This document shows positions 17,807 through 42,525 of a stretch of 44,410 nt of DNA, piece by piece. The position numbers and the translations under genes were made by a program. This DNA is from Methanobacteriota archaeon (GTDB lineage Archaea > Thermoplasmatota > Thermoplasmata > Lutacidiplasmatales > UBA184), in NCBI GenBank assembly GCA_013290045.1, contig JABCYU010000003.1, positions 1 to 44,410 of the forward strand, written 5' to 3'. Every line of letters starts with the position of its first letter. The first letter of the stretch is position 1. The notes under the pieces are model-generated. The model had not been told where the DNA came from and did no database searches. It was given only the letters and a program-made list of their open reading frames with translations.

Positions 17807-17890
17807 TGATTCGGGGCCGGGAGGGGCTACGGTGGGGGATGTTCTTCGGGAAGAGGCGCGCCCCTCTGAACACGCAACTGAGTTTGCACG
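17807..17890 (+). repeat. Dispersed repeat copy ending in core site CACGCAA-CTGAGT-TTGCACG (17871-17890), upstream of the integrase
   Basis: Shares TG..TCGGGG.C, GGGCT, GCGCGCCCCTC and the core site with 13315-13442. Confidence 0.75.
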
Positions 17891-18032
17891 GGCCTGCTGA
17901 CCATCCTGGGACGACCTGCTCTACCGTCCCGTTCGCTACCGGTCGGTCTCGGGGAGCACGTCGGTTCGGTCAGTAGCCATCGTTCAGCGGAGGGAGCGAG
18001 TCCAAGACCGCAGGTCTCCACGGCACCCCTCG

Positions 18033-19052
18033 ATGTCGCAGTCCAGGACCCCGAGGGGGGCGAGGACTCAACGCCACCAGGGGCATCCCCGCTCGCTGCT
18101 GGGCGGGGGGTCGTCGAGCGCGAGCGGTTCCTTCCCGACCGGAGGTCATTCCGGGGTTGAGTTTGGGTTGGACAGGGCCCCGCCCCGAACCGAAGAATGG
18201 ACGTCGGAAGTCACCCGATTTCTGGCTGCCAAGGACAAGGAGAGTCCGGTCGGAGAGAACTGGAAGAGGCGGATGCGATGGGAGCTCTCCCGAGTTCCCG
18301 ACCTCCTCCAGAGGCTCAGCCCGGCGACGACGCCCTCGAGGGCGGCCGATCTGAATTCAGATCACGTCCTTGCTCTCCGGACGGGGATGGGTTGGGAGAA
18401 GGCCACTCTCGCTCTCCACTTCGCGGCCCTACGGCAGTTCCTCGCGTGGGCCGGGAATCCCATCGCGACCCGGAAGAGCGTTTGGAGGTTGCCGTCTGGA
18501 CAGTCGAGCCGGCGGAGGTGGTTAACGAAAGACCAGTTCGAACGGTTGCTCTCCGCCGCAGTTGGTCCCGCAAAGGCTCTCGTAGCACTGGAAGGGCTGA
18601 ACGGCCTGCGACGCGTAGAGGTCCTGCGCCTGCGGAAGAAGGACGTACTGCTGGAAGAAGGCTGTCTCCGTGTTCTGGGCAAGGGGAGGGACGGCGGGAA
18701 GTGGCGGACGATTCCGATGCATCCAGAGGTTCAGTCCTTCCTGTCCGACTTCGTCATCAAGCTGGATCCGGAAGCCAGACTCTTTCCGGTAAGTCAATCT
18801 GGCGCAGACGGGATGCTCCGCCGGGCGGTCGATGCGGCCGGCTTTGGGGGAGAGGGGGTCCGAATCTCCCATCATGACCTCCGGCGAACATTCGGCAGAA
18901 TGGCTCATCAGTCGGGAATGGATCTCATCCAACTGAAGAATCTCTTCGGCCACAGTTCGGTGGAGATGACGGTCCACTACATCGGGATCGACGCAGACGA
19001 GATGCGCTCTGGCCTAAACCGAATCAGGCTCGGAACGAGGCCAGGTGAATAG
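18033..19052 (+). CDS. Tyrosine recombinase/integrase (Xer-like)
   Basis: Complete catalytic set: GLRRVE (R), GKGR (K), HDLRR (HxxR), LFGHSS (H), TVHYIG (Y); the true start may be downstream. Confidence 0.95.
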   Translation: MSQSRTPRGARTQRHQGHPRSLLGGGSSSASGSFPTGGHSGVEFGLDRAPPRTEEWTSEVTRFLAAKDKESPVGENWKRRMRWELSRVPDLLQRLSPATTPSRAADLNSDHVLALRTGMGWEKATLALHFAALRQFLAWAGNPIATRKSVWRLPSGQSSRRRWLTKDQFERLLSAAVGPAKALVALEGLNGLRRVEVLRLRKKDVLLEEGCLRVLGKGRDGGKWRTIPMHPEVQSFLSDFVIKLDPEARLFPVSQSGADGMLRRAVDAAGFGGEGVRISHHDLRRTFGRMAHQSGMDLIQLKNLFGHSSVEMTVHYIGIDADEMRSGLNRIRLGTRPGE

Positions 19053-19319
19053 GGGTGACCATGGGAGATGGGTCCGTCTCCGACCGGGCCAGGAGTCGTG
19101 AAGCCTGCCACGGGCTCCTAGAAATCGTTCGTCACTTCCGAATCCACCGGATCCGGGAATCAGGTGCCCGCTGAACTTCGAGTTATCCAAGAGTGTCAAG
19201 ACTGGGTTGTGCGACGAAGAAGGCCGACGCCCAGGGCGGTGGGACGGGTTGGGGTGTCTACTGAACCGATGGCCAGGAAGTTCGTGGTGCGGGACGGTTC
19301 ACGCACCCAGACGCCCGGT

Positions 19320-19664
19320 TCAAGGTCGTTGGGGGCGGGTGCCCAAGAGTCGGAGCGCACGTCGGAGACCTGGATAGGTGGTCGCATCCCTGCGAACGAT
19401 TCGGATAAAGGCTACAACATCTCCTTCAACGACAGCATATATGGCCCGGTAGCCAGGATCGTTCGCTGCCGGTCGAATGTCAATACGGGAGAGTATGTGT
19501 GGTCCCTCAAGGGATTTGGTCTCGTATCCCCGAAGCAGGTCGGTGGGGGGAACCAGCGGGTGGGTTTCGAGTTCGTCAAGAGCCCACTCCAAGATGCGCC
19601 TCGCAGCGGGGGGCAAACTATCTCGCTGAAGGCCAGACCTTCCGAGGAAGAGGATACGGCTCAC
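19320..19664 (-). CDS. RelE/ParE-family toxin
   Basis: RelE-like size and pattern (L..HP...TK.LEG...SRI...GYRAIY.V...I.RR..TY), downstream of a small antitoxin. Confidence 0.75.
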   Translation of the reverse strand: MSRILFLGRSGLQRDSLPPAARRILEWALDELETHPLVPPTDLLRGYETKSLEGPHILSRIDIRPAANDPGYRAIYAVVEGDVVAFIRIVRRDATTYPGLRRALRLLGTRPQRP

Positions 19665-19672
19665 TTGCGGCT

Positions 19673-19906
19673 CTATCTACTCGATCGAGACCGTCGGCTG
19701 ACTCTACGAGGAACTCCTTTGACCCTTCCTTTCCGGAAATCCTCGAGGACCCGATGAGCGTGCTTTGCATCCTCTCGGTCCATCTCCCGCTCGAGAAGAT
19801 CGAGCAGGAATGCGTCCCAGTTCTGGGCCCCCGTCTTGAACTCCTGAAGAACTCGGAGAGTCGACGTGTGGACCGGCACGCTCGTAATCGGGTCGACGGC
19901 CGACAT
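19673..19906 (-). CDS. Putative antitoxin (RHH-like; T.VPV...T...L...KT...WD.FL..L)
   Basis: 77 aa; paralogous to 42526-42762; upstream palindrome ATCATT-N5-AATGAT at 19922-19938. Confidence 0.75.
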   Translation of the reverse strand: MSAVDPITSVPVHTSTLRVLQEFKTGAQNWDAFLLDLLEREMDREDAKHAHRVLEDFRKGRVKGVPRRVSRRSRSSR

Positions 19907-20186
19907 GGCATGGCTCAGGACATCATTGTATTAATGATTTTCACCAATATCGAGATCGCGTCCTTCCGACCTCTCGGCCCTATGCCACGAAAGCCCGCAC
20001 GCCCTCAGCTTGCCGCATCCCAGGAACGGTCACTGCTCAAGGTTGTTCTCCGGCGAGGGGCGGCACGCCCATAACTCGGCAAAAGTCTCCGACGCCCTCG
20101 AGAACTCTTGCTTCGATGCCATCCGACGGGCGTCGTTCAGGCATTGCTCCGAGGTGGCAAGCCTGGATTCAACCTATTCGCTTGCG

Positions 20187-20206
20187 TGTGCAACTCTCGC
20201 TGCACC
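20187..20206. repeat. Palindromic core site TGTGCAA-CTCTCG-CTGCACC
   Basis: Intergenic consensus variant. Confidence 0.7.
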
Positions 20207-20280
20207 TCTCCCCACTCCCAGGGGCCCCGTCGTCGGAGAGTTCAGTCGGAGTTGCGCCTAGGTGCCGCCTGCGCCCGACA

Positions 20281-20300
20281 GGTGCAATGGGGGTTGCACC
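20281..20300. repeat. Perfect palindromic core site GGTGCAA-TGGGGG-TTGCACC
   Basis: Exact 7-bp inverted arms around a 6-bp spacer. Confidence 0.8.
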
Positions 20301-20361
20301 GCACGCGAGAGGTCCGTCCGAACCGGCGTCTTTAAGGGATGCCACGTAATACGCGTAACAG

Positions 20362-20568
20362 ATGGCCCTCGAGGTCCTCTACAGTCGACATGCAAGGCAA
20401 AGGATGGTGTTGCGGGGCATTTCGAGCGATGAGGTCGAGATTGCCATTCGGACGGGTGCGAAGTCCCGACAAGGCCCCAGAGTCGTCGCGGCGCATAGCT
20501 ACTTCGAAGTAGTCTATTTGGTAAGGGGGCGCAAGATTATCGTGATCACGGTGAAACCAAGATGGTAG
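20362..20568 (+). CDS. DUF4258-like (RelE-fold) toxin
   Basis: YSRHARQRM..RGIS..EV..AI..G; VITV; TTTAAG box at 20331-20336. Confidence 0.8.
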   Translation: MALEVLYSRHARQRMVLRGISSDEVEIAIRTGAKSRQGPRVVAAHSYFEVVYLVRGRKIIVITVKPRW

Positions 20569-20906
20569 CGAAGGCAGAGAAGTGCCCGGTCTGTGGGAAG
20601 GGTAGGCTGAAGCCGGCAATGGTCCATGAGGAGATGTTCGGGGTGGAGCTCGGGAACTACCCTGGGGAGGTGTGCTCCAATTGCGGGGAGACATTCCTCA
20701 CGACCGAAAGTATGCGGGCCATTGAAGTGCGCGCCAGGGAGTTGGGCCTCTGGGGTCTCGCCTCCAAGGTCAAGGTCGCAAGATCGGGCAATTCGCTCGT
20801 AGTTCGAATCCCGGCTCCCCTAGCCCAGTACTTGAGATTGAAGAAGGGCCAGGAAGTCATGGTCAGCCCTGAGAAGGAAAACCGGCTCGTGCTAGAACTC
20901 GCCTGA
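20562..20906 (+). CDS. YgiT/MqsA-type Zn finger plus AbrB/MazE domain antitoxin
   Basis: CPVCG...VCSNCGETF; KV.RSGNSLVVRIP..LA..L.LK.G.EV; overlaps the toxin gene. Confidence 0.85.
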   Translation: MVAKAEKCPVCGKGRLKPAMVHEEMFGVELGNYPGEVCSNCGETFLTTESMRAIEVRARELGLWGLASKVKVARSGNSLVVRIPAPLAQYLRLKKGQEVMVSPEKENRLVLELA

Positions 20907-20926
20907 GCCAACCCATCGGGGAGGTG

Positions 20927-20946
20927 GGTGCAAGGACAATTGCAAC
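20927..20946. repeat. Palindromic core site GGTGCAA-GGACAA-TTGCAAC
   Basis: 20 bp after the TA stop codon. Confidence 0.8.
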
Positions 20947-21339
20947 CCTCGGCGCAAGAGAAGCGGAATGTCCCTGCCTCCGCAGCGCAAGGTACCAGAA
21001 TTCGTGCAACGCTTGTTGGGCGGTTTGGAGAACTCATCTCGCGAGCTCCTGAAGGCACTTATCGAGACTCGGATCGCACCCGATCGCCGCGAGAAAGACT
21101 AGTCTCCCGGCGGCCCTTGCCCGCACAGTCATTGCGGTCACCCTCTTCAAGCGCTAGTCCTTTCGATCGCATGGGGTCGGTGAAGGGGAGTCAAGAGGAA
21201 GGGACCGAAACCATGCCAGCCCACCGTGTCACCTGCGTAGCTTCGAGATGGTGCCGGACCCTTTCGACTCCTAACGGACTAGAGTTCCATCCCAAGTCTC
21301 GGACCGCTTATCAGCCGCCAGCCTCTACGGTGACCCCCC

Positions 21340-21963
21340 ATGGAGCACCACGCCAGCGCAATTGAGATCCTCGAACGCGCACGCCAAACGTTGGCAGTTG
21401 CTGAGAAGGGCGTACAGGACCTCAGGGGAAAGGACCCGAGCCGGTGGTTACCCGGACTTCTGAACGTCGCCGTTTTCGGGCGAGCAGTAACCAATATTCT
21501 CCAGAATCTTAGGTCCGTAGACCAAAAGTTTGACCCATGGTATGCTCCGAAGGTACTCGAGATGCGGGCGGACAAGCTGCTCCGGTTCTTCTACGAGCTC
21601 CGAACTGAGGTGCTCAAGACGGCTAGACGCGTTCCTACCGCGCACAGAACCCATATCAAGCACCTTGAGCTCCCAAAAGACCTCGCGAGGATGGGACCGA
21701 AGCCTCCCGGAACGACCGGTTTCTTCATCGGAGATTCGGCGGGCGGCTCCGGATGGTTGGTGAGGCTGCCCAATGGAACGCAAGTGCCGTATTACGTGGA
21801 TCTCCCGGATGACATCGGGGTGGTCGACATGACTATTAGAGGCGCCCCCTTGCTGCATCTGGGACAACCTGTTTTGGATGATTCGGCCGCGTCGCTCTCC
21901 TCTTTGTATGTGAACTACCTCCGGAATCTCCTTGACGATGCAGACAAGGTGTTCGGGCATTGA
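21340..21963 (+). CDS. Hypothetical protein, possibly HEPN-like helical domain
   Basis: 207 aa; 'FGRAVT..LQ...F..WY...FF.ELR..VLK' pattern; no canonical RxxxxH. Confidence 0.7.
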   Translation: MEHHASAIEILERARQTLAVAEKGVQDLRGKDPSRWLPGLLNVAVFGRAVTNILQNLRSVDQKFDPWYAPKVLEMRADKLLRFFYELRTEVLKTARRVPTAHRTHIKHLELPKDLARMGPKPPGTTGFFIGDSAGGSGWLVRLPNGTQVPYYVDLPDDIGVVDMTIRGAPLLHLGQPVLDDSAASLSSLYVNYLRNLLDDADKVFGH

Positions 21964-22217
21964 TCCCTGACTCCGCATTCTTGATGGAGACGTTCAGTAC
22001 GACTCGGGATTGCCATGACCCTACCAACGACAGGACTACGAGCCACGAAGGGAACCAAGCCTGCCATGAAGACAGGATCAAGAGGAGTCGGAGTGTTTGG
22101 GTTTACCCCGAGCCTAAAGCGATCTCCATTCGAGCCTTACCCAGTGCATCGCCACTCAGCCAAGTCGCGGACTGCATGGAACGAATGCGCCCGACCTTGC
22201 CCGTCGCGGACTGAGCC

Positions 22218-22781
22218 ATGAAATCCCGTGCCAGCGGAACAATCGCGGTCGCGAGTCGACAAGTGGAACTGTTCGCCCGAGAGTGGAGCCTCCAGCCGCA
22301 TAGATGGTGGTACGAGAGAGATGTAGCGGCTGAGATTTCACGGAGAATCTCGGACGCGCTCGGGCCGCGGCGGAGTAAGGTTCCATTTGATGACTTGGAA
22401 ACCTATTCCGAACCTCATTGCAGTTGTGGTCATGCTGGACGCGTAAGGATCGATCACCCGATTTATGGATGGGACAAGGTACGATACCCGAAGCGACCCG
22501 ACATCGTGATTCACCCAGACGACCCCGAAGATCCTTACCCCTGGGTCTGTGAAATCAAGGTTGGATCAACGCCTCGAAAGGACTTGAACGGGGTAAGCGA
22601 TGAGGAGAAGGTCCTACGTCTTCTGGGTGGTCCCCGCCCCGTCGTCCTAGCGGGGACAGTCCTGGATATGCGGATTCCAACCCCACCCCGACTTAGGGGG
22701 TCGGTGTCCCGTTCGTTCTCCCTCGGGGGTCGTCTAACAAAGTACTTTGTAGAAGCAAGGCAGCCAAACCCAAATGTCTAG
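22218..22781 (+). CDS. Putative PD-(D/E)XK nuclease
   Basis: YERD helix, RPDIVI and CEIK motifs. Confidence 0.6.
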   Translation: MKSRASGTIAVASRQVELFAREWSLQPHRWWYERDVAAEISRRISDALGPRRSKVPFDDLETYSEPHCSCGHAGRVRIDHPIYGWDKVRYPKRPDIVIHPDDPEDPYPWVCEIKVGSTPRKDLNGVSDEEKVLRLLGGPRPVVLAGTVLDMRIPTPPRLRGSVSRSFSLGGRLTKYFVEARQPNPNV

Positions 22782-22862
22782 CTGGAGTTTCCTTAAAGAT
22801 TCCCTGGCCAGCAACCGAGCCATCAGGCACCTGCAGCTTGTTGGTCGGCGTCTCTCTTTGAA

Positions 22863-22925
22863 TGTGCATCGGAGGTTGCGCACACCATGCTTCGACCGAC
22901 GTCCACTTGCAACGCCACTTGCAGC
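22863..22925. repeat. Tandem core sites TGTGCAT-CGGAGG-TTGCGCA (22863-22882) and CTTGCAA-CGCCAC-TTGCAGC (22906-22925)
   Basis: Intergenic consensus variants 43 bp apart. Confidence 0.7.
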
Positions 22926-23292
22926 TTCCCCAGACCGAATTGGGGTCGGCGAGCTGGGTTCTGGGAGGGGGAACTCCATGAAAATTCAAACCCTCGGCCC
23001 GGTGACCCGGCGGTGTTGCCCGGCGTGATCGTTCCGGAATTCGTCGTACACGCGCCGCTTCGCACGATCTGACCCGGCTTGAAGCCGATGCCTGGACCGC
23101 CGGCGGCTGTTAAACCTCTCGCGTCGAGGTAAGTCGCCGCCTGCGCCCCCATCGCCCTTGGCAACGAACGGGTTTCTCGCTCTGCCGGACAAGGCTCGTT
23201 GTCTTTGTTGATTGTCCCTCGGGAACCCTGCGTGGGCGTCACATCTTGGATCGTCGGCAAAGTCTAAGACTGAACTGAGACTGCCGGTCCCG

Positions 23293-24003
23293 ATGCGAGT
23301 TGAAGAGTTCTTCCGGGCACTGATTCCGCAAACAGCCCCGATCAACATGGGGTTCTACAATTGCTCGAAGGACCCGAGCGTCCCGAAAACGGCGGCATTG
23401 CTAAGGGAATCCGATCTCGACTGCCTTGTTCTCTGTGGTGGTAGGATGGCGGAAATGTACCCCAGGGTCATGGAGGGCCTTGGCAGCCGACCACGGTTCC
23501 CGGTCTTCACCTTTCTCTCAGACATCGACTCAGTCGTCGCGGGTAGCGACGGCATTTTGTTCGGCTACGTTCTCAATCAGTACCCGCAGGTAATCACCCC
23601 CATACACGCGGCGGCGGCTCTTAGTGTCCGGGACAAAGGGGTGAGTCATGTTGGCGTAGCATGCTTGGAGGTCGAGCCATGCCGGGCGACTCTGGGGGGC
23701 TGGCCCCGATCACAACACGTGATTTCTATGCGGGACATCGACGAAGCGGTCCGACTCTCCTCGGTGGCCCGCCTCGCAAGGAACCTTCTGATGGTCATCG
23801 ACCCGGGGGTGGATTCTGTGGCCGAACCCTCGCTAGTCAAGGCGATTTCTTCGATAGCCCGCTTGCCGTTGATCGTCACCGGCGGCAGACGACTCGGGAG
23901 TCAACAATCTGAGGACCTCGTTGGCGCAGGCGCGCGGGGGATAGCTCGCTATTTCGAGAATTCGGAGGACATCCGTGAATATGTCGAAGGGCGGGTCAGA
24001 TGA
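23293..24003 (+). CDS. Divergent geranylgeranylglyceryl-phosphate synthase (GGGPS/PcrB)-like TIM barrel
   Basis: Colinear with group II GGGPS (M.VEE, D...LCGG, PV..F, D.ILF..VLN, LEVEP, PLIVTGG, V.AGA, ENS..IRE.VEG), but canonical DPDK, YLEAGSG and VTGT motifs are altered. Confidence 0.75.
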   Translation: MRVEEFFRALIPQTAPINMGFYNCSKDPSVPKTAALLRESDLDCLVLCGGRMAEMYPRVMEGLGSRPRFPVFTFLSDIDSVVAGSDGILFGYVLNQYPQVITPIHAAAALSVRDKGVSHVGVACLEVEPCRATLGGWPRSQHVISMRDIDEAVRLSSVARLARNLLMVIDPGVDSVAEPSLVKAISSIARLPLIVTGGRRLGSQQSEDLVGAGARGIARYFENSEDIREYVEGRVR

Positions 24004-24862
24004 ACCTACCGACAATGAAGGCGATGAGCGCAATCAGCATCCCGTACTTCATTAGCGACTCGGGGCGTCGCGGAGTTCCCTGGAAGAGTACGATGACTGA
24101 GTAGAGAAAAATCGCGTCCGCGACAGCGACGATTTCGAGATAGGTGATGCTAACGATTCCGGACAGAAAGAAAGGGATCGGACTTAGCAAGACGGCACCC
24201 AAGACCATCGACGCAGAAATCCCTCGAGCAAAGGGAAGGCCGTATGTCCGCGGAATCGTCTTGCGGTCGACATCTCCCTCGACGTCGCTTATATCCTTCG
24301 CGACCTCGCGTCCTAGTATCGAGAGGAATGAAAGCGTGGAGAAGAAAAGAACCGGAGTAAGATTGCCAACGATCGAACCACCGAATAAGAACAGAAGACC
24401 GGTCTGGCCGGCGATTACAACATTGCCGACAGACTTCAGTTTCTTCGCGGCAAACTCGTAGCACATCTGAATTGCTATGGCCAGGATTACGATCGCGAGT
24501 GCAACGCGAGGTAGGAAGATCGCGCCAGCGATGGCGATTGCAAATAGGGAGATCGCAATCGCGAGCGCGACTCGCGGACTCAGTGCCCCTCTGGGAAGGG
24601 TTCTATCCGGTCGATTGATTCGGTCAACCTCTATGTCCAGGTAGTCATTCAGCGTATTCCCTGCGCCAACGCTGCAGAAGACAACCAGGAAGCATAGGCA
24701 GACGTCGAGTAGGATGCTCGTGGTAACCTTCCTGCCCGCCGCTACGATTAAGCCCGCTACTCCCCCGAGCCCGGCTAACCCCGCGGTGCTCAGTCGAACG
24801 AGAGCCGTGCCAGCGTGCAGCTTCGAACCGAAAGAGGGGCGCTTCTCATCAATACCCGTCAT
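23996..24862 (-). CDS. UbiA-family prenyltransferase, DGGGP-synthase-like
   Basis: GNTLNDYLDIEVDRINRPDRTLPRG and REVAKDISDVEGD Asp-rich motifs; about 8-9 TM segments. Confidence 0.93.
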   Translation of the reverse strand: MTGIDEKRPSFGSKLHAGTALVRLSTAGLAGLGGVAGLIVAAGRKVTTSILLDVCLCFLVVFCSVGAGNTLNDYLDIEVDRINRPDRTLPRGALSPRVALAIAISLFAIAIAGAIFLPRVALAIVILAIAIQMCYEFAAKKLKSVGNVVIAGQTGLLFLFGGSIVGNLTPVLFFSTLSFLSILGREVAKDISDVEGDVDRKTIPRTYGLPFARGISASMVLGAVLLSPIPFFLSGIVSITYLEIVAVADAIFLYSVIVLFQGTPRRPESLMKYGMLIALIAFIVGRFI

Positions 24863-24867
24863 ACGAA

Positions 24868-25755
24868 CTAAAATTCGTACACTTCGGGGCCTGTGGGACT
24901 GAACAGTACCACTCGCTTCGTGGGGTTGCGCCGAAGTCTCCGTCGAGTGAATTCCAAGGCCACCTCCCGAGCGGAGCGGATGCGCACTTTGGCATCTCCC
25001 TTGTAGTCCATGGAGTAGTGAGTCCCCTCGTTGGCGACCTTGCTCCGCAGTGCCAAAGTCACGAGCCAGACCAGTTGTTCGTCTGTCCAGTTCTGGCTGG
25101 AAGAACCGTTCTGGACGTAGACGAACGTGTTATCGTCGAGTTTGTCGAAAAGCCACATGTCACCATTTACGTAACCCTTAGTGTGTCGGACGATGACGTT
25201 GGCTTGTGGAAGCGCATGTTTGGTGGGATGATATGCGTCCCAGCGTGTCGAGTAGTTCATCAAGAAAAATACCGTCAACTTGGAGGCCCTAGGAACCGAA
25301 GTCAAGGTTTCGAGGCTTCGAAGTTCTCGCTGCAGGTCGAGTGCCCGAGAGCCCTTCGGGTCTAGACTTTCTTCGTGATTACCGATGAATCTCAGAGCGA
25401 CGCCGTGGTCGGTCGCATAAGAGCCGTAGATTCCCAGGAGCTTCGTCAATCCTTGGTATATGTCATGGTAGTTGGACCGGAGCTTGTGTCTAGTGTGGAT
25501 GACGTTCACGTAAAGATTTCTGACCCCAAGCTGTCGAAGAATCTCAATCAACCTGACACAGAAGATACCTCCGTCGACGTAGGCATCGGCCCCTTTGAGC
25601 AGAGATGATGTTCGGGTCCCGTCAGTCATCTCGTAGATGACTAGCTCTTGAACCCGGGCCATAGGATCATCGATCCTGAGGCGGGACGCGGCCTCAAGGA
25701 ACTGCCGGCGTGTGGCCGACTCTACCGGTAGGGCAACCGATTCCTTGCCTGGCAT
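24868..25755 (-). CDS. Divergent cis-prenyltransferase (UppS-fold) protein
   Basis: DGTRT (cf. DGNRR), LGVRNLYV, VALRFIG, FLMNYSTR (cf. LNYGGR), LPQANVIVRH (cf. PDLLIRT); ATG at 25755 preferred to 26193; ends 5 bp before the UbiA start. Confidence 0.75.
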   Translation of the reverse strand: MPGKESVALPVESATRRQFLEAASRLRIDDPMARVQELVIYEMTDGTRTSSLLKGADAYVDGGIFCVRLIEILRQLGVRNLYVNVIHTRHKLRSNYHDIYQGLTKLLGIYGSYATDHGVALRFIGNHEESLDPKGSRALDLQRELRSLETLTSVPRASKLTVFFLMNYSTRWDAYHPTKHALPQANVIVRHTKGYVNGDMWLFDKLDDNTFVYVQNGSSSQNWTDEQLVWLVTLALRSKVANEGTHYSMDYKGDAKVRIRSAREVALEFTRRRLRRNPTKRVVLFSPTGPEVYEF

Positions 25756-26303
25756 CCCGTTCCTGCCTCGGAGCGTTCCTTGTATATGGCCTCGCCAGTC
25801 GGAAGTCTGCCTTCCGCCCCGGGGTATCACGGTAAGTCGCGAGGAAATGCTTCTCCTCTCTAAGCTCTCGCGCCGACCGAGTTTTAGCCCCCGTTCCCTT
25901 GCCGAGGGAGCTAGTCCGCGGTGTCCGCAAGATCGCGCACAAGACCTGAATCCGACCACGCCCTCATCAGCGGAAACTCTCGATTCCAGGACGCGCGTCG
26001 TGTCATGGAGTTCCTCGAATACTCCGCTCGCCGGGCCGTTCGAGTTCTCGGGCCCTGGCGGTGTCGGACTCAATCTCAAATACCAGGAGCATGTTCCGGC
26101 TTCGCATCCAACCCGATTTCCGGAGAGCCAACGGCAGGTCAGAGAAGCATTGAACTTCGTAGCGACTGCGGACGAGTTGACCGCACCCAGCATCCGGTAT
26201 ACATCGATTTGATTCTACCCCTATCCGACCGCTGTTCTGGTGGGTACCTGGGAGACCAGAGTACGACGGTGCCGGGGCCGGTAGCTCTGAGGAAGAGGGA
26301 AAA

Positions 26304-27579: not shown

Positions 27580-27599
27580 GGTGCAGTCGTCCTTGCACA
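27580..27599. repeat. Palindromic core site GGTGCAG-TCGTCC-TTGCACA
   Basis: Intergenic consensus variant. Confidence 0.7.
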
Positions 27600-28807: not shown

Positions 28808-28834
28808 CCTTTCGACCGCGTCCGAGGGCGGCGA

Positions 28835-30194: not shown

Positions 30195-30244
30195 ACGTGG
30201 GGTAGCACGTGCCAGGATATAATGTACACGTGTTCGCACACGTG
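30194..30244. promoter_or_regulatory. Two pairs of (C/T)ACGTG boxes flanking a TATA-like TTATAT; putative RHH operator
   Basis: Boxes at 30194, 30206, 30227 and 30239 (12-bp spacing within each pair). Confidence 0.55.
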
Positions 30245-30444
30245 CCTCACACAAACCAGCCCCCGCGTGGGAGCCAGTCCCATCCGACCTGCGCGAGTCC
30301 GGTCGCAGACCACCCTTCGAGCATCGTCAGGTCGATGGAAGGGCACCTGCAGCTCGGACCGGGCAGGTTGTGGGGGTAGCAACCAAGTAAGGAACGGGGG
30401 CAAAGTTTTCCGTGGCACCCTGGATTACCCTCGAAGCCGTTCGG

Positions 30445-31410: not shown

Positions 31411-31443
31411 CCAAGTTTCGGGCTAGCTCGGCTGCCCGTGAGA

Positions 31444-31463
31444 GGCGCATCGGAGGTTGCACC
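31444..31463. repeat. Palindromic core site GGCGCAT-CGGAGG-TTGCACC
   Basis: Sits in a 64-bp intergenic gap; central 14 bp identical to 22866-22879. Confidence 0.75.
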
Positions 31464-31474
31464 CCCCGTCGAAT

Positions 31475-32203
31475 CTAGGGGACTATACGGCCGAGCAGGG
31501 CTTTCCGGCGAGTCGCGGCGCTTGCAACATAATGTGTTTCGAAGGCAGAGACTACCCCGTACCCAAGGCCAAGGGCAAGTCCGTCGATTGCACCGAACGC
31601 CCGGAACGCCACCAACGCAGAGATGACTGCGCACAAGCCGAGGATAGGCCCCACAGCAAACGCGGTCGTGTTTAGGAATCTGTGTCCTAGAACTTGCTTA
31701 CGGCTGCCCTCGACCCCATCGGGTTCGCGCAGCATTCCCCACTTCCGCTCGTAGTTCAGAAGCTCGTTGCTCGAAAGTAGATTGTTGATCTTCTCCTCAT
31801 CGTCGTGAGCGGCTGCCCCTTGGGTGGTGTTGGTGTCGAAGAGGTGGGCAACTAGGTGAAACAGCGTCAAGACCAGGAGGGGAAGCAGAAGAACCAATTC
31901 GGATGTCCCAGTAAGGATGGAGTAGCCAAGCAGGAGAAAGATCCCGGACAGGAAGATCTGAACGTAGGTCGAGTAGAGCACCTGGTTTGAGAGAATTTCA
32001 GATCGACGTTGCCGGTATGACTCCAGTACTGCCTCAACCTTGAGGCGAGTCACTTCGTGATCGTACGAAGGCGACTCCGGAAGAGCTTCCCAAGGAGTGC
32101 CTTCAGTGGCTCTGGACGCGCCTTCGGGGTTCGTTTCATCCAGGATGGTGGCAGTTGCTAGAGGCCGAATGAGCGCCGAGGCCGTACTGGCGCCTCCCTT
32201 CAC
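31475..32203 (-). CDS. Four-TM membrane protein ('E.Y...R.EI' type)
   Basis: LESYRQRRSEI followed by two TM segments, EEKIN linker, then two TM segments; start uncertain. Confidence 0.65.
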   Translation of the reverse strand: MKGGASTASALIRPLATATILDETNPEGASRATEGTPWEALPESPSYDHEVTRLKVEAVLESYRQRRSEILSNQVLYSTYVQIFLSGIFLLLGYSILTGTSELVLLLPLLVLTLFHLVAHLFDTNTTQGAAAHDDEEKINNLLSSNELLNYERKWGMLREPDGVEGSRKQVLGHRFLNTTAFAVGPILGLCAVISALVAFRAFGAIDGLALGLGYGVVSAFETHYVASAATRRKALLGRIVP

Positions 32204-32502
32204 GACCCTCTCCCCGCTGCCGCTCCGGCGGTCTGACCCGACGGGACGGGCCTGTTCGACCAGACGCGGCCCCAGAAGAAGTTACCCATAGCCCCCCTGT
32301 TCTCGAGAATGTCGTCGGAGAATGACCGGGCCCTGTCGGACGCCGGGCGACAAGGACGCGGGCGTCTCGACGGGCACTCAGTCGCCGAGTTTAGAGGGGA
32401 ACTGAGGTTGTACACGACGCTCTCTCGGAGAACGAGGATCCGACCGTTTCGATCCCTCTCCGAGCCGGTATATACTTGGCGCTAACTAGGCCCCATGCGT
32501 CA

Positions 32503-33381
32503 ATGAAGACTTGGGGAGACTTAGCGCCTGACCGCCGTCAGGCAGAGGCGGGTTCATTCCTGAAATGGGCTGGGGGAAAGGCCCAGGTCTATCTTTCCCT
32601 TCGGAAGTTCATTCCTGAGCTCCGGGAGGGAACCTACTATGAGCCGTTTCTCGGTGGCGGAGCGGTCTACTTCGCCCTAAGCCCAGAACGAGCTGTGTTG
32701 TCGGACATCAATCGCGAGCTCATTGTGGCCTATCAAGTGGTAAGAGACGATGTCGAGGGATTGATTGGGGCGTTAGCCGCCCTGCCATCACACCCGACCT
32801 CGGCAGAGTTCTACGAGACGAGGTCGACCTTTAACGAGCTCAAATCGAGGTCGGGGGCTCGATCGCCAGGAGCGAAGAGAGAGCTGGCGGCTCGCTTCAT
32901 CTGGCTGAACCACACCTGCTTCAACGGTCTCTACCGGGTGAACTCCAAAGGGGAGTTCAACGTTCCGATGGGCTCGTACCGAAACCCGAGAATCTACTCG
33001 CCGGGGAACCTTCGCGCGGTGAGCCGCTTGCTTTCCGGAACCCACGCAAGGATTCTCTGCCTCGACTTCGAGACCAGCCTCGCCCGGGCTGGGGACGGGG
33101 ACCTGGCGTACCTCGATCCGCCCTACCAGCCGGTCTCTGCAACCGCCAGCTTCACCTCCTACACTAGATCAGGATTCGGCCCCGAACAACAGCAACGCCT
33201 CGCGGCGGCGGTCCGTGCAGCGGTGGCCCGGGGCTGCAGAATCGTGCTGAGCAACTCGTCGACGAGTTTCGTAAAAGGGCTCTACATCGGAATGCGAATG
33301 GAGACGGTTCGGGCTCCCCGGGCGATCAACTCGGTCGGCTCGAAACGGGCCGCGGTTGAAGAGTTGGTCGTTGTCGCATAG
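32503..33381 (+). CDS. dam: Dam/DpnM-family DNA adenine methyltransferase
   Basis: FLKWAGGK; YYEPFLGGGAV; LNHTCFNGLYRVNSKGEFNVPMG; YLDPPY; TATATA box at about 32469. Confidence 0.96.
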   Translation: MKTWGDLAPDRRQAEAGSFLKWAGGKAQVYLSLRKFIPELREGTYYEPFLGGGAVYFALSPERAVLSDINRELIVAYQVVRDDVEGLIGALAALPSHPTSAEFYETRSTFNELKSRSGARSPGAKRELAARFIWLNHTCFNGLYRVNSKGEFNVPMGSYRNPRIYSPGNLRAVSRLLSGTHARILCLDFETSLARAGDGDLAYLDPPYQPVSATASFTSYTRSGFGPEQQQRLAAAVRAAVARGCRIVLSNSSTSFVKGLYIGMRMETVRAPRAINSVGSKRAAVEELVVVA

Positions 33382-33419
33382 GCGCAATCCGATTCGGCCA
33401 CGCCCCTCGTCCTCGGACC

Positions 33420-34406
33420 TCACCACCACTTCGAGCTCTCCCGAAACACTGACGCCGACTCTCCATGGGCTGGCTTCCGGAATACGTACAGGTGTTCATG
33501 AGCGAGGAGGAGGAAGTCGTACTTCGATCCTGACCAACTCTCGCGTGTGGACTTCATCTTCCACTGGACTTTAGTGATGTCTTCCCTGAGGACAAACCCC
33601 GCCTCCAGAAACGACTGCATGACCCGGACCGAGATGGGAACGAAGTGCCGATGCCTTCGAGTGTCCCCCATCAAGATGGCGCAGTGCCGCCCCGGTCGGA
33701 CGACCCGAAAGAATTCGCCCGCAGTCGCACGCATTTGGTCGACGAACTCCGACACGCTTCTGATGCGCGAGAGGTCCCCGGCAATCCGGTCACCCGAGTA
33801 GGCGACAATGCTGGCATACGGGGGGTGGGTGGCCAATAGATCAACCGAGTCGGAATGGATCTCGTCGAGATCCCGCGCGTCCCCGACGTACGTCCTGATC
33901 TCCGGTTCGACGTGATCGGGGTCCAGCGAACCCAAGGCGAAGTTCAGCCGATCTCGGGTAACCATGATGGCATCGCGATTAATGTCCACCCCGATACCAC
34001 GTCGATGTAGCAGCCTGCACTCGGTCAGGGTCGTCCCGCTACCGACCATCGGATCGAGGACCAGCTCCCCCGGGGCGCTGTACCGCAAGAGCAGGTTCCT
34101 CGGGATGTACGGCGACCAGTTTCCCCGGTAGTTTCCCGAATGGGTTGCCCAGTCTCCTCGGTCAGGGAAGGACCAGACGGTGGTCCGCTCCGGCTTGTAC
34201 TCGGCAGGGGGGCCAATGGAGTCAATTGTGTACGGGCCTCGGAGACCCAACTCGACGCTCTCTATACCGACCGACCCGTGGGTCGCTCTGAATCGCACGT
34301 AGTCGGCCTGGGTCACCTCCAGCATAGGCTGGGGGGCCGTCTCAAGCACGGCAGAGGACATTGCCCTCCGCTTCCTCGGCCGTGGCTTGGTCTTTCCAAG
34401 GGTCAT
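33420..34406 (-). CDS. N4/N6 amino DNA methyltransferase (second MTase of the RM locus)
   Basis: WATH.G.YRGNWSPYIPRNLLLRYS; VLDPMVGSGTT motif I; THPPY motif IV; start 34406 or 34361. Confidence 0.9.
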   Translation of the reverse strand: MTLGKTKPRPRKRRAMSSAVLETAPQPMLEVTQADYVRFRATHGSVGIESVELGLRGPYTIDSIGPPAEYKPERTTVWSFPDRGDWATHSGNYRGNWSPYIPRNLLLRYSAPGELVLDPMVGSGTTLTECRLLHRRGIGVDINRDAIMVTRDRLNFALGSLDPDHVEPEIRTYVGDARDLDEIHSDSVDLLATHPPYASIVAYSGDRIAGDLSRIRSVSEFVDQMRATAGEFFRVVRPGRHCAILMGDTRRHRHFVPISVRVMQSFLEAGFVLREDITKVQWKMKSTRESWSGSKYDFLLLAHEHLYVFRKPAHGESASVFRESSKWW

Positions 34407-34491
34407 GAACGATGAGAGCTGGTCAGCCTGAGAGGAGGGTATAGCCTGAACGGGTGACTCGGGGAACCACCATCCGAGGTCCGTCCTAGTA

Positions 34492-34511
34492 GGTGCAATC
34501 AGCATTTCAAC
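34492..34511. repeat. Palindromic core site GGTGCAA-TCAGCA-TTTCAAC
   Basis: Between the divergent MTase and REase genes. Confidence 0.6.
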
Positions 34512-34533
34512 CACGGCCGGCTCGATCCTAAGG

Positions 34534-35676
34534 ATGTCTTCGGCGGGACAGCGGCTGACCGAGTTCTTCGCGACTCTTGACGTCGCTGGCGATGAGCCGA
34601 TAGGAAAGCCTGCGGGAGCGCTTCCCGAAACCCTTAGGCCAGCCTTCCCCGACGCGAAAGAATTCTACGACCTGCTTGGCCAAGTGCAAGCCGTTGGCAG
34701 TAGAGCACACGACGTGCCAAGTCAAAAGCACATCCTCGCTCTAATCCTAGAAAACGACCCGCGATTGTTCTTGGTCCTGTCCCATCTGCATAGACAGATT
34801 CGATTCACCAACGTAGAGATAGCTCGAACCTTGTTCGACCCGAAACGGCTCGATGACCCCGACTACTACACTGGAGCACTCACCCGCGACCCCGAGTTTC
34901 GGAGGGCGTACTCGAAGGCCCGAAAGTGGCGAGAACTCGAGCTTTCGGGGGTGAACTCGCGGACCGGAACCCTAGCGGCGGGCAAGAAGGCCATCAGCGG
35001 CTACATGGGCTCTGAAGAAAGGTGTTGGGAGCTATGGCTCTCACGGATTCGATCTGACCCAGAGACAAGGGAAAGGGTCATCGACTACCTATTCGACCAT
35101 GAAGATCTAGGGGAGCTGATACAGGAGGGTGCCATAGAACAAGCCCTTCGCAGGAGCCTACGTACTACGAATGTCGAGAAGGTGAAGTCCCTCCGCGGAA
35201 CATTTGGAGCTGGGAAGATACGACGAATCCTCCAGGAGGGAGGATTCACCTCGACCGACCACGAGGGGGAGCAGAGCGACATCTCGGACCTGCCTCAACT
35301 CGCGAAGAGAAATGCGCTGGTGGGACCCCTGTTCGCCAGCGAGGTGAACTGGGAGAAAGAGAAGCGCTTCGACTTCGCCCTCTTCAACCAGCGTGAGGTG
35401 CGGTTCGTGGTGGAGACCACGTACTACTCCACTTCCATGTCGAAAATCGGCGAGGTGATCAAGCACTTCGAAGATTTGCGGGCGAAGTGCGCGGACAGCT
35501 TCCATCTCTTCTTCCTCACCGACGGGATCGGTTGGTTCGGCAAGGTGAAGGACATTCGTAGGATGCTGGGCTTTGGAGCCGAGGCGGCAGATGGCACCGG
35601 TCAGTTCCCATATCTGCTAACATACCATCAATTCACCGACCTGTTGCCGGAAATCACCAAGGCTCTCAACGGCTAA
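34534..35676 (+). CDS. DpnII-family type II restriction endonuclease
   Basis: KRFDFAL...VETTYYS.S.SK..E...F.FLTDG.GW matches the DpnII C-terminal signature; adjacent to Dam-like MTases. Confidence 0.85.
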   Translation: MSSAGQRLTEFFATLDVAGDEPIGKPAGALPETLRPAFPDAKEFYDLLGQVQAVGSRAHDVPSQKHILALILENDPRLFLVLSHLHRQIRFTNVEIARTLFDPKRLDDPDYYTGALTRDPEFRRAYSKARKWRELELSGVNSRTGTLAAGKKAISGYMGSEERCWELWLSRIRSDPETRERVIDYLFDHEDLGELIQEGAIEQALRRSLRTTNVEKVKSLRGTFGAGKIRRILQEGGFTSTDHEGEQSDISDLPQLAKRNALVGPLFASEVNWEKEKRFDFALFNQREVRFVVETTYYSTSMSKIGEVIKHFEDLRAKCADSFHLFFLTDGIGWFGKVKDIRRMLGFGAEAADGTGQFPYLLTYHQFTDLLPEITKALNG

Positions 35677-35787
35677 TGGATCAACCATGAAGTGGTCCCG
35701 CGTAAGGCTGGGGAGGTAACTTACATCGAAATGCGGTACATGACTTCATAAAGCGGCCCGGGTTGGAGGAAACGCCCTTCGGAGCAA

Positions 35788-37368
35788 ATGCCGTCAGGTG
35801 AGTGGATACTCGATACGTCCCCGACGAAGCGGGTCTACTACTCCATAATTGCCGATTATGGGCTGAACCTCGCGATTTGCGAACTCGTGGATAACGTGGT
35901 CGACTCTTGGACCCGACGAGGGCGACCGGGAAAGGCGCGTGTCACGATCGATATCGATCTCGACCAACAGACCATCAAGATTGCAGACAATGCGGGGGGT
36001 GTTCCTCGGAATGAATTGCAATACATCGTCGGACCGGGTCATACAGGCAACGATCCCGCGGATCCCTCGATCGGCATATTCGGGGTCGGGACCAAGCGAG
36101 CAGTCGTTGCGCTCGCCGAAGATACTCAAATCAGGACGCGCTTTGAGGAAAAGCCGACCTACAAGATCCGCCTTGACCAAGCGTGGCTTGAACTCCAGTC
36201 CTGGGACCTGCCCTACGAGGTAGCCGGAGACATCGACCCGAATAGCACCGTTATCGAGCTGAGCAGGTTAAGGAAACCCATAACCACAGAGGAGCTAGCA
36301 GGACTCAAGGCCCATCTCGGGGCGACTTACGCCCGATTCATAGATTCGTCGAAGTTGGGGATTCAGTTTCAGGGCGAAACAATCGAGTCCATCCATTTTG
36401 AAGCTTGGGCCTTCCCCCCGGAGTATCGACCTAGACGATACAGAGGTACCATCGACGCAGGCGTCGATGGTCAGGTCAGAGTCGACATGACCGGAGGCCT
36501 AACTCAAGAATCTAGTCCGGGCACCGGGGAGTATGGTTTGTACGTCTACTGCAACGGCCGCTTGGTAGGCCGCGCGCTCAAGGGCGCGGATGTGGGCTTT
36601 ACGAAGGGGCTTGTGGGCATGCCACATCCCGACATATCTCTTACGAGATTAATCGTCTTGTTGGACGGTCCGGCTAAACTCATGCCTTGGAACAGCAGCA
36701 AGTCCGGAATTAACACCCAGAGCGGAATCTTCCAATTGCTTCAGGGTTGGACGATCCCGATTCTCAAGTCTTTCGCTTCGGTATCGCGGGGGTTGTCGAA
36801 AGTCGATGGTTCTTGGCGCGAAAACGTGTTCAAGTTTGACCACGGTTCTCCCGAGGAGCGTCCGCTTGGCAATTCGCCTCAGGTCGCACGACTTCATCTT
36901 CCACCGATCCCCAAGTCGAAACCGAGATTGGCCGAACGCCTTGCAAAACTAAACGAACCGGTAACCACAGCCAAACCCTGGACACGAGGCCTGTTTGAGG
37001 GCGTGGCCGCCGCGCGGCTGATCGCATCTGGCCGCTACGAACAAGGGAACAGGATTGCACTGATTGTGCTGGATTCGACCCTGGAGATAGGGTTCAAGGA
37101 GTTCCTGGTCAACCGGGGGGGTGGAGGATATTCAGATACGCGCTTGCAGGCCATATTTTCCAATCGCAGGCTTGTTGACGACGAGATTCACAAGGTCGCA
37201 AAGTTCCCAAGGAAGGAGCTGGCTCAGATTCGCTTCTATTACAACCTAAGATGCGATCTCATCCATCGAAAGGCTTCTATTTCAATATCGGACAATCAGA
37301 TCGCCGATTACGCCGACATCGTGGAGAAGGCACTCAGGAGGTTGTTCGGGTTGAAATTCTCCGAGTGA
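35788..37368 (+). CDS. GHKL (MORC/Hsp90-like) ATPase fused to a C-terminal HEPN domain
   Basis: ICELVDNVVDS, IADNAGG, IGIFGVGTKRA, STVIEL; S5-like YVYCNGRLV; C-terminal LIVLD..LE...K.FL...YNLRCDLIH (RxxxxH). Confidence 0.88.
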   Translation: MPSGEWILDTSPTKRVYYSIIADYGLNLAICELVDNVVDSWTRRGRPGKARVTIDIDLDQQTIKIADNAGGVPRNELQYIVGPGHTGNDPADPSIGIFGVGTKRAVVALAEDTQIRTRFEEKPTYKIRLDQAWLELQSWDLPYEVAGDIDPNSTVIELSRLRKPITTEELAGLKAHLGATYARFIDSSKLGIQFQGETIESIHFEAWAFPPEYRPRRYRGTIDAGVDGQVRVDMTGGLTQESSPGTGEYGLYVYCNGRLVGRALKGADVGFTKGLVGMPHPDISLTRLIVLLDGPAKLMPWNSSKSGINTQSGIFQLLQGWTIPILKSFASVSRGLSKVDGSWRENVFKFDHGSPEERPLGNSPQVARLHLPPIPKSKPRLAERLAKLNEPVTTAKPWTRGLFEGVAAARLIASGRYEQGNRIALIVLDSTLEIGFKEFLVNRGGGGYSDTRLQAIFSNRRLVDDEIHKVAKFPRKELAQIRFYYNLRCDLIHRKASISISDNQIADYADIVEKALRRLFGLKFSE

Positions 37369-37447
37369 TGAGGCACCCGCGAGGGAACCGGATGAATTCT
37401 CCTTGGAACCAGGATCTCCGACCCAGGTAAGAAAGACTCGACTCAGA

Positions 37448-37467
37448 GGTGCAAAGCGGATTGCAAC
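37448..37467. repeat. Palindromic core site GGTGCAA-AGCGGA-TTGCAAC
   Basis: 80 bp after the GHKL-HEPN stop codon. Confidence 0.8.
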
Positions 37468-37770
37468 TCCATGGCGAAGAACGACGCGTCCCGATAGGGT
37501 ACGCCCGACCTCCGCTCTGAGCCCGGGTCCCAGTGGTGCTCCGATCATCGCGGGGGAGGCTCCTCGGAGTCCCGGTCACGCACTGAGAGGAGACGGGCGA
37601 AAGGGAACCGTTGCCCCCACCCTCAACGGGTGCGTTTTCTATGAGGCCCCCGAGGTCCACATCAGACACTTCCGTTCAACCACGACGGATAGGTCTTAAT
37701 CAGTGGTAAGCCTGACACGAAGTCGGCCCCTTATCCGTGGTCGGACGATCGCTAACGTCGAGGGTTCATC

Positions 37771-38343
37771 TTGGGAAACGCCATTGATCTTCACGACGTG
37801 CCGAAGCAGGCATGGGCTGGAGCGGGAAAGCAGGGAAGATTTGGATTCTACAGCGCCGTAGTTCTGTCAATTTTGCTGTCGGCTATCGGCGTCTGGGGGT
37901 TTCTGGCGATTGCACAACGAGAGTGGCCCGACGGTCAATTTTGGACGGACCTCCCGGAGTTGATTGGGATTGGCGTCTTCCTCTACGGGTTCGTCGGAGT
38001 GTTGACCTGGGTGTCATTCACCAGGCAGGGAAAACCTGCGATCGGTCTGGACTTGGACGGAGGTGGCATCCAAATCCGGTATTCTTGGTTTGGCCCTCTC
38101 CTGCTCAGATGGGATGACCCCACTTTCCGGCTAAGATTTCAAAAAGTTAGGAGGTGGTTGAACCCTGAACAGAGTGTGGACTATCGAGTCGCCTACTTCA
38201 GATGGAAGCCACCACTCTTCCTGCGCGAGACCGAGTTCCAAACGCTCATAGACGCAGCAAGCTCTGCGGGAATGAAGGTCGAGACGGTGAATCCCACCCA
38301 GTGGCCAATCAACGAGGTTGTGTCGATTCGAGGGCGCGCATAG
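37771..38343 (+). CDS. Two-TM membrane protein with soluble C-terminal domain
   Basis: Two hydrophobic helices followed by a beta-rich domain. Confidence 0.7.
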   Translation: MGNAIDLHDVPKQAWAGAGKQGRFGFYSAVVLSILLSAIGVWGFLAIAQREWPDGQFWTDLPELIGIGVFLYGFVGVLTWVSFTRQGKPAIGLDLDGGGIQIRYSWFGPLLLRWDDPTFRLRFQKVRRWLNPEQSVDYRVAYFRWKPPLFLRETEFQTLIDAASSAGMKVETVNPTQWPINEVVSIRGRA

Positions 38344-38676
38344 GCTCGCGATAGCTCGAATTCCAAGGCGCTTCCGGGCACCGGTCCCTGCCCTGAACAG
38401 GGAACCATGCGGGACCCCCTCTAGTCTCTCGTGCCCCGCTCCTTTGAGGGGCGTCGGGGTTGAGTAGGCCCCCCTCGGGGCGGGATTGAACGGTCCGCAG
38501 GCCCGATTGGGGGAAACCGGTCGCCGGGGGAAAGGCTCGCGATGCCCCAGGGAAGCCATCTCGCGCGCAAGGTGTCCGATGAAGTCAGTCCAATGACGGT
38601 GACGGGCTACTGACCGAAAGTCCCCCTGCACGGCTCGAGGGCGTCGCTGATCACGACGTGACAAGGCCTCGGGATG

Positions 38677-38696
38677 GGTGAAAAGTGTATTGCACT
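38677..38696. repeat. Palindromic core site GGTGAAA-AGTGTA-TTGCACT
   Basis: Between convergent genes; shares GTGTATTGCA with the 42157 site. Confidence 0.65.
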
Positions 38697-42106: not shown

Positions 42107-42156
42107 GTGCTGACTGCCGCCCTCCGGGGAGTAGAGAATCTAGCGCACCCAACTCG

Positions 42157-42523: not shown

Positions 42524-42525
42524 GG

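Follow-up and report, generated by a model that had tools for sequence, protein, structure and literature searches.

Introduction

Archaeal tyrosine recombinases and the elements that carry them have been reviewed in PMC8371274, the available portion of which groups XerA with the integrases of pNOB8, SNJ2 and Met26-2, describes class II elements as following the lambda integration paradigm, and uses neither the term 'arm-type' nor the term 'arm-binding'. Here we describe an integrase-led island on the 44,410-bp contig JABCYU010000003.1 (C3) of an uncultured soil archaeon, which was analysed over its entire length and is referred to as the window. A gene for a short Xer-like tyrosine integrase lies at the left edge of this island, and the two non-coding borders of the island share two short sequence blocks in inverted orientation. 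A preceding reading of the letters alone (the original prediction) had taken these borders for the inverted homologous termini of a transposon or for the remnant leader of a second, deleted integrase. Like class II (pNOB8-type/XerA-related) archaeal elements, the island has an integrase gene that is intact in the integrated state, lies at the edge of foreign DNA and finds its best match in a XerA-like family; unlike them, it is shown here with neither a flanking direct repeat nor a restored target gene, and its cargo consists of defence and addiction genes only.

In the well-studied systems of this kind, the arm sites that accompany the crossover region are repeated. Those of lambda point in opposite directions on its two arms, P and P', and arm sites of the lambda type require an arm-binding domain in the recombinase. 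Lambda Int binds core sites as well as accessory arm sites, as described in the available part of PMC9791396. The island resembles the lambda attachment site attP in that its short sites lie away from the presumed crossover on both arms.

The groups known as SEs, GInts, RITs and Tn554 rely on two to four dedicated proteins (IntA/Tfp/IntB/Srap, GinA-D, RitA-C, TnpA-C) and have repeats at their termini, which in SEs are imperfect and inverted and measure 13-19 bp, and in RITs are 34-bp terminal inverted repeats (PMC10214605, available part). In a table of the same source, archaeal hosts are listed, among five groups, only for integrative and conjugative or mobilizable elements (ICEs/IMEs). Like SEs, GInts, RITs and Tn554, the island encodes a tyrosine recombinase and has sequence elements in inverted orientation at either end. 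Furthermore, restriction-modification genes are frequently linked to homologues of integrases and transposases, as stated in the available part of PMC2853133, and the window follows this ordinary pattern of defence islands, with a DpnII-type restriction-modification set, an HNH nuclease and a HEPN protein beside the integrase and copies of an insertion sequence (IS).

The genome bin (G000) that contains the window comprises 2.23 Mb in 183 contigs, is 89.5% complete and has a content of guanine plus cytosine (GC) of 68.4%. The sequencing runs that contain window DNA are labelled as soil metagenomes, and an archaeal host fits the XerA-like best match of the integrase, a TrmB regulator and genes for a UbiA prenyltransferase and a protein resembling geranylgeranylglyceryl phosphate (GGGP) synthase. 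Comparisons were made with 149 other genomes of the genus; some of the tallies include the unpublished genomes G019, G088 and G110, on which alone no claim depends.

Results and Discussion

An integrase-led island of foreign composition

Over ~18.0 to ~38.5 kb the GC content of the window drops from 0.66-0.69 to 0.54-0.62, and the GC content at third codon positions (GC3) falls from 0.76-0.86 in the genes outside to 0.59-0.74 in those within. The island as a whole has a GC content of 0.587 compared with 0.684 for the genome, and its tetranucleotide distance to the remaining genome (0.418) lies above the maximum of a null of 60 random 20.5-kb genome chunks (mean 0.111, standard deviation 0.062, maximum 0.357). 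The DNA from 17813 to ~38.4-38.8 kb is compositionally foreign, and the integrase-headed element of ~20.8 kb that had been proposed corresponds to a foreign, integrase-led block of ~21 kb. Its cargo comprises defence and addiction genes, with no recognised replication, transfer or virion genes, and it is best explained as a mosaic, horizontally acquired defence/addiction island.

The left breakpoint is at 17812/17813, because homology to a RibD_C/DHFR-like gene (gene X), of which only the very end is retained, stops at 17812. When the left flank was searched against the DNA of the genus, the 54-nucleotide (nt) gene X remnant was 84-89% identical (46-48 of 54-55 nt) to sequences of G007, G129, G101 and G041, where the counterpart is the 3' end of intact minus-strand genes of 187 amino acids (aa). 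The remnant translates to NQNGVPAITYRPTGRL followed by the stop codon, with another stop 7 codons upstream. Relatives do not keep synteny across this left point, as the original prediction had expected of a true end, and the position it gave, 17871, was near, the mapped breakpoint lying 58 nt further left. The junction is also bridged by a contig of 15,309 nt from the probable source run, which spans 16999-32307 and is not an independent sample; the junction therefore does not stem from an artefact confined to this assembly.

Enzymes of this class usually integrate into or beside the 3' end of a gene. The edge, which is separated from the stop of a DHFR-like gene by 16 codons, agrees with the placement by which integrative islands are recognised (at a tRNA gene or a gene 3' end), and no tRNA genes were found in the window. 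The integrase would have installed the island at this breakpoint.

The integrase gene reads inward from the left edge, beginning 355 nt from the breakpoint, and represents the only PF00589 match on contig C3 and one of six in the whole genome. Its best NCBIfam match is XerA_Arch (NF040815), and identity with the XerA chromosome-dimer resolvase was considered and rejected, as the score of 80.9 bits is below the curated equivalog cut-off of 220 and a far better PF00589 match (134.5 bits) is present on contig C16. Only the catalytic domain was recognised in both the 294-aa and the 339-aa reading of the gene and an arm-binding domain was not detected, which speaks against the 'arm-type binding sites' of the original prediction; Pfam silence is not proof. 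Homologues of the integrase (expect value of 1e-20 or below) are encoded in 80 of the 149 other genomes, a tally that includes G110; the best of them are 48-62% identical, with alignments that begin only from ~18180. Relatives closer than 61% were not found in metagenome contigs (6 loci), and the viral contigs contained no relative of the integrase.

At the other edge, the strongly foreign block ends somewhere within 38344-38846, because the last gene of island composition ends at 38343 and the hairpin on the esterase side starts at 38846. The predicted right end at 38696 falls inside this interval, in the same 555-nt non-coding stretch. An open reading frame at 38131-38664 on the minus strand shows a GC pattern (0.68/0.55/0.60) resembling that of non-coding DNA.

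Two short inverted blocks shared by the borders

Each border contains one copy of the 14-mer TTCGGTCAGTAGCC and one copy of the 13-mer CCCCGAGGGGGGC, the latter followed by ACTCAAC on the left and by the longer ACTCAACCCCG on the right (Table 1). All strings of the original prediction were found at the places it gave, both by reading and by script, and the conserved order with differing spacing that it described was confirmed: the block order is conserved and inverted, with a start-to-start spacing of 84 nt on the left and 138 nt on the right. From the left breakpoint, the left-hand blocks begin 152 and 236 nt into the island. The 11-mer CGGGGTTGAGT is present on the plus strand at both 18152 and 38455, as had been noticed, of which the copy at 38455 is not an independent motif because it is the reverse complement of the ACTCAACCCCG that trails the right-hand 13-mer. 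The copy at 18152-18162 pairs with 18066-18075 as an inverted repeat of 10 nt.

The two ends lack homology and share no more than the 14-mer and the 13-mer with ACTCAAC. In the alignment of the two borders, MAFFT left the shared blocks out of register and local alignment returned the bare blocks only, contrary to the proposed 'homologous termini'. The pair of 'core sites' on which this proposal also relied is identical at 11 of 20 positions, a level equalled or exceeded by 2202 of 250312 pairs of border 20-mers. Two candidates for a third shared block were rejected. One of them, CGGGCCTGCTGACC at 17889 versus CGGGCCTGCGGACC at 38505-38492, is out of order and at chance level by a composition estimate; the other, an exact inverted 13-mer (CGACGCCCTCGAG, 18328 versus 38634), has seven copies in the genome and is likewise out of order. 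Structured RNA was not indicated in the borders, which fold no better than shuffled sequences (z = -0.78 for the left and +0.17 for the right), and Rfam gave no match at gathering scores in the window and none at an expect value of up to 1 in either border.

The 14-mer occurs at these two positions only in the 2.23-Mb assembly, where 0.01 copies are expected, and the 13-mer has a third copy on contig C104. When regions of 486 and 555 nt were drawn at random from this genome in 150000 pairs, 4175 pairs contained one or more exact inverted matches of at least 13 nt, and 31 contained two that were colinear, i.e. 2.1e-4 per pair. A chain statistic that admits matches of at least 10 nt was reached in 144 of 20000 pairs. 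The window as a whole contains 85 maximal exact matches of at least 13 nt, 34 inverted and 51 direct, among which the border pair is the only colinear cluster. Roughly one such cluster is expected per window, given several thousand region pairs, and the block pair is therefore notable only for its position, the two regions being the borders of the island. The claim that three colinear motifs are unlikely to arise by chance has to be reduced in two respects, as there are two blocks only and about one such cluster is expected per window. Exact matches of 13-14 nt are common in a genome of 68% GC, which calls for caution. The composite pattern of the 13-mer, a 2-4-nt spacer and ACTCAAC had no match in the collections of genome contigs and of viral contigs.

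The likeliest function of the blocks, with a probability that we place somewhat short of even, would be that of recognition sites on the two arms of the attachment site, to which a DNA-binding protein would bind. The candidate binder would be an accessory or regulatory factor rather than an arm-binding domain of the integrase itself; a separate factor is favoured because no such domain is detectable in the integrase. Blocks on both arms could serve to bring the ends together for excision, or could co-regulate the ends with the integrase promoter. A more specific and rather doubtful model is that of a short Xer-like archaeal integrase devoid of an arm-binding domain, with mirror-image copies of two blocks on the arms that would be read by a separate factor encoded by the island or the host.

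Weighing the interpretations

The interpretation that we prefer, and hold with even confidence, is an ordinary mosaic, integrase-led island whose borders share two short, inverted, colinear blocks and are not homologous termini. A considerable number of observations weigh against it, some concerning the blocks and others the island as an integrated unit. The 13-mer and the 11-mer are compositionally cheap, with 1.8 copies expected and 3 seen and 1.5 expected and 2 seen in the genome, respectively, and under a looser local-alignment statistic the match is unremarkable, its top-two score being reached in 70 of 1500 pairs. None of the 14-mer, 13-mer and 11-mer was found upstream of the 29 integrase homologues analysed, one of which has a lone GTTGAGT, and therefore the shared blocks are not an architecture of this integrase family. 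In seven relatives, the ~35-40 kb on either side of the integrase contained no leader-to-distant-site pair of inverted matches of at least 13 nt. Unlike in lambda attP, each block is present once per arm and the two blocks are dissimilar, with only ACTCAAC(CCCG) recurring, inverted at 18152.

With regard to integration, no direct repeat of more than 13 nt linking the left border (17682-18167) to 37000-44410 was found, and repeats of 10-13 nt are at background level. An empty site was not found among relatives, none of which retains both flanks, and the two flanking genes are themselves accessory and rare: of the 149 other genomes, 22 have gene X and 3 have the esterase. Apart from the remnant, gene X is missing from the assembly, where only a 22%-identical paralogue is present on contig C23, and for this reason a simple insertion is not demonstrated. 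Finally, the DNA to the right of 38.9 kb is itself atypical, with a distance of 0.281 compared with 0.151 in a 5.5-kb null (standard deviation 0.031, maximum 0.254). Because this DNA is atypical and host-like DNA is not regained before the contig end, the right 'end' may be a joint between two acquired pieces.

The strongest alternative is coincidence, i.e. functionless chance matches in GC-rich non-coding DNA on an island that is otherwise as described. It gains from the expected copy numbers, the local-alignment null and the one cluster expected per window, and also from the behaviour of the right border, which has other exact matches of at least 13 nt with unrelated positions (5283, 5827, 10335, 18328 and 20090). 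G101 furthermore shows a comparable colinear 12-mer pair that does not extend, and the blocks are conserved in no relative. We nevertheless regard coincidence as somewhat unlikely, since the regions are not arbitrary and represent the two non-coding borders of the island, for which as a pair named beforehand the rate of 31 in 150000 applies, and since the 14-mer is compositionally costly, the 7-nt extension behind the 13-mer adds to the improbability and the composite pattern is absent from the collections searched.

Alternatively, the right border could be a relic of a second, related element, of which it would represent the arm next to the integrase, or of a partial duplication in inverted orientation, the integrase having been deleted in either case. 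Such an origin would account for the same block order on the opposite strand and for the position of the left-hand blocks in the integrase leader, and the site is one of accretion with IS copies and several acquired modules. However, there is no leftover similarity between or beyond the blocks, and nothing integrase-like follows the right-hand blocks, which does not support the proposed remnant leader: tblastx searches with the borders, including 38300-38950, gave scattered, low-scoring matches that were read as noise. No copy of the gene X remnant lies outside the right-hand blocks either, the best match being a weak, gapped one in direct orientation at 38444-38520 (score 34, attained by 44 of 3000 random regions). 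Neutral decay, moreover, would not spare perfect 13-14-mers in otherwise unrelated sequence, and a relic is thus improbable.

That inverted terminal or subterminal sites bound a discrete 20.8-kb tyrosine-recombinase transposon moving as a whole, for which the inverted order of the shared blocks at both borders and the integrase at one edge might speak, is very improbable, as the contig encodes a single recombinase compared with the two to four proteins of the inverted-repeat groups in the available part of PMC10214605, the blocks are subterminal, the 'core' pair amounts to noise, the genome contains no second copy of the unit or its ends, and the content differs from that of the nearest strain seen, judged by loose contig ends at 20944 and 27628.

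Table 1. Positions of the shared blocks, borders and genes in the 44,410-bp window
Feature	Position	Strand	Remarks
KaiC/RecA-like ATPase gene, left flank	16137-17681	+	Weak Pfam AAA_16 and KaiC matches; GC3 0.81, host-like composition
Gene X remnant (RibD_C/DHFR-like)	17759-17812	-	Final 16 codons and stop; homology stops at 17812
Left border, non-coding region upstream of integrase	17813-18167		No Rfam match; no significant fold (z = -0.78)
14-mer TTCGGTCAGTAGCC, left copy	17965-17978	+	
13-mer CCCCGAGGGGGGC, 4 nt, ACTCAAC, left copy	18049-18072	+	13-mer itself at 18049-18061
ACTCAACCCCG in opposite orientation (= CGGGGTTGAGT on the plus strand)	18152-18162	-	6 nt ahead of the probable integrase start
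Xer-like tyrosine integrase, 294 aa	18168-19052	+	From TTG at 18168 (start inferred); PF00589, 64 bits
Addiction-type pair: weak ParE-like protein and small partner	19320-19906	-	ParE_toxin 15.7 bits, under cut-off
Addiction-type pair: DUF4258 protein and YgiT-zinc-finger/AbrB antitoxin	20362-20906	+	DUF4258 34.6 bits; YgiT_finger and MazE/AbrB matches
GGGP-synthase-like gene, UbiA prenyltransferase, 441-aa unknown	23212-26193		NF003198 weak match; PF01040, 120 bits
HEPN (Swt1-like) protein	27884-28807	+	PF18731; PADLOC PDC-M34B, 63 bits
HNH nuclease, modified-DNA-dependent restriction type	30445-31410	-	PF13391; NF045808, 71 bits, cut-off 180
DpnII-type restriction-modification set	32476-35676	D12 (Dam-like) methylase +; N4/N6 methylase -; DpnII-like endonuclease +	PF02086, PF01555, PF04556; PADLOC MTase_II (two), REase_II
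HATPase_c_3 protein, 526 aa	35788-37368	+	GC3 0.64
Predicted membrane protein, 190 aa	37771-38343	+	GC3 0.64; final gene with island composition
Right border, non-coding stretch of 555 nt between two convergent genes	38344-38898		GC and GC3 step; no Rfam match
13-mer CCCCGAGGGGGGC, 2 nt, ACTCAACCCCG, right copy	38455-38480	-	13-mer itself at 38468-38480
14-mer TTCGGTCAGTAGCC, right copy	38605-38618	-	
Perfect 9-bp hairpin	38846-38864		Immediately behind the esterase stop codon; assigned to the right-flank gene
Esterase, accessory gene	38899-39774	-	PF00756; in 3 of 149 other genus genomes
Exact 127-nt direct repeat	40936-41062 and 44284-44410		Latter copy is the first 127 nt of a second identical IS630 copy, at the contig end
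IS630-family copy	40988-42106		DDE_3 and helix-turn-helix (HTH) matches

Integrase homologues, attachment sites and related strains

The regions upstream of the integrase homologues are not conserved among themselves, and the blocks, also with mismatches allowed, adjoin none of the five other integrase genes of this genome. The original prediction had named as a check whether the motifs precede paralogous integrases; they are associated with 0 of 29 homologues in relatives and 0 of 5 paralogues, which is one of the two conditions that it had set for its own refutation. The homologous integrase of G007 lies 1.6 kb from a tRNA-Cys gene, at the edge of a ~20-kb low-GC tract that also contains a 60%-identical HNH gene, which looks like an ordinary island of the tRNA-side type. 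A 15-nt repeat at the far end of this tract was rejected as an attachment repeat, the string being a generic tRNA T-arm motif. At the same far end (G007:C2:632833-632972), a truncated tRNA-like piece with an anticodon-arm-like hairpin and a T-arm that breaks off after TTCGATTCC was observed, which may be the scar of another integration.

Two strings were rejected as attachment sites of the island. AGGGACCCCGT (17794 and 38822) is 11 nt long and at background level, and gene X homology runs 8 nt past its left copy while the gene body is absent after the right copy. CGGGGTTGAGT (18152 and 38455), taken as a direct repeat, also has 11 nt and is at background level.

The flanks have separate counterparts in related genomes. 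The left-flank KaiC-like and GNAT genes are 78% identical at the DNA level to G104:C22, where the next gene after this shared flank has its counterpart here on contig C11, and G022 has the esterase beside a gene whose counterpart here is on contig C33. The neighbours of gene X (in G007, C2:651134-652632) and of the esterase (in G022, C9:320467-321821) in turn have counterparts that lie side by side on C33:7943-9157. The gene X remnant and the esterase thus flank the island on C3 while their partners adjoin on C33, which looks like a partner exchange between two loci. The region has undergone rearrangement, with no clean ancestral order readable.

Contigs of run X2, from a second study, are 96-98% identical to the window over the left flank, 18031-18294 (9 differences), the integrase, 19466-20944 and 28290-28720, and enter unlike sequence at 20944 and 27628. 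This run is without cover over 17361-18030, 20969-27600 and 28973-36299, and missing cover proves nothing. Runs X3 and X4 yielded scraps only.

Gene content of the island

DNA-level relatives within the genus exist only for the addiction modules, the HNH gene and the two methylases, and these are located at unrelated places there. The two addiction-type pairs (19320-20906) are the parts of the island that are commonest elsewhere in the genus. Small DNA-binding proteins encoded by the island are the AbrB/YgiT antitoxin (20562-20906) of one of these pairs and a CcdA-like protein (29646-30254). Homologues of the HNH nuclease with 60% identity are located in islands of G007 and G062. In G062, the HNH gene is grouped with Dam-like and N4/N6 methylase genes (57-70% protein identity; G062:C32:219865-222810, corresponding to 30445-34514 of the window), and homologues of the DpnII-like endonuclease and the HATPase were not found in the searched stretch of G062:C32. 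The occurrence of this module without the DpnII-like endonuclease suggests that the methylases and the modification-dependent HNH nuclease travel as a unit.

The trio at 23212-26193 resembles a spare, divergent cassette for prenylation of the ether-lipid type on mobile DNA, the 441-aa member of which has no family. The loose ends of the run X2 contigs at 20944 and 27628 bracket this trio.

Flanking regions

The right flank comprises the accessory esterase, a HepT-MNT toxin-antitoxin pair at 40035-40828, both members of which have Pfam matches, and an IS630 copy. A second nucleotidyltransferase gene of the MNT type (5783-6370) is encoded in the host-like left part and adjoins a gene for a 133-aa protein without a significant Pfam match (locus 5378-6370). 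Of the two sites, one in the left part and one in the right flank, the second has DNA relatives of 66-70% identity in several genomes of the genus. The 3.3 kb between the two IS630 copies, with genes for a 120-aa unknown protein and a DUF4386 membrane protein, are bracketed by IS copies in direct orientation, and the assembly probably broke on the IS630 repeat.

In the left part of the window, a Kelch-repeat gene (13584-14723) has a paralogue of 76% DNA identity at G000:C73:5640-6727. An exact 16-nt direct repeat, AGAGGCGCGCCCCTCT, which is a small hairpin and longer than either shared block, is present at 829-844 and 17852-17867, so that one copy lies between the gene X remnant and the left 'core site' of the original prediction. 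This repeat probably reflects the commonness of GC-rich exact matches here.

Implications

If the blocks are functionless, the locus is of descriptive value, as one more mosaic defence island, with a left breakpoint that is cleanly mapped, in an uncultured soil archaeon. If the model of a separate, block-reading factor were true, the intasome of this archaeal element would be organised by a symmetric pair of accessory sites and not by the recombinase itself. The blocks could then also couple expression of the integrase to the state of the ends, as one of them abuts the integrase start. Should the blocks bind a protein, they would offer a first handle on how small archaeal integrases that lack an arm-binding domain assemble the ends of their elements.

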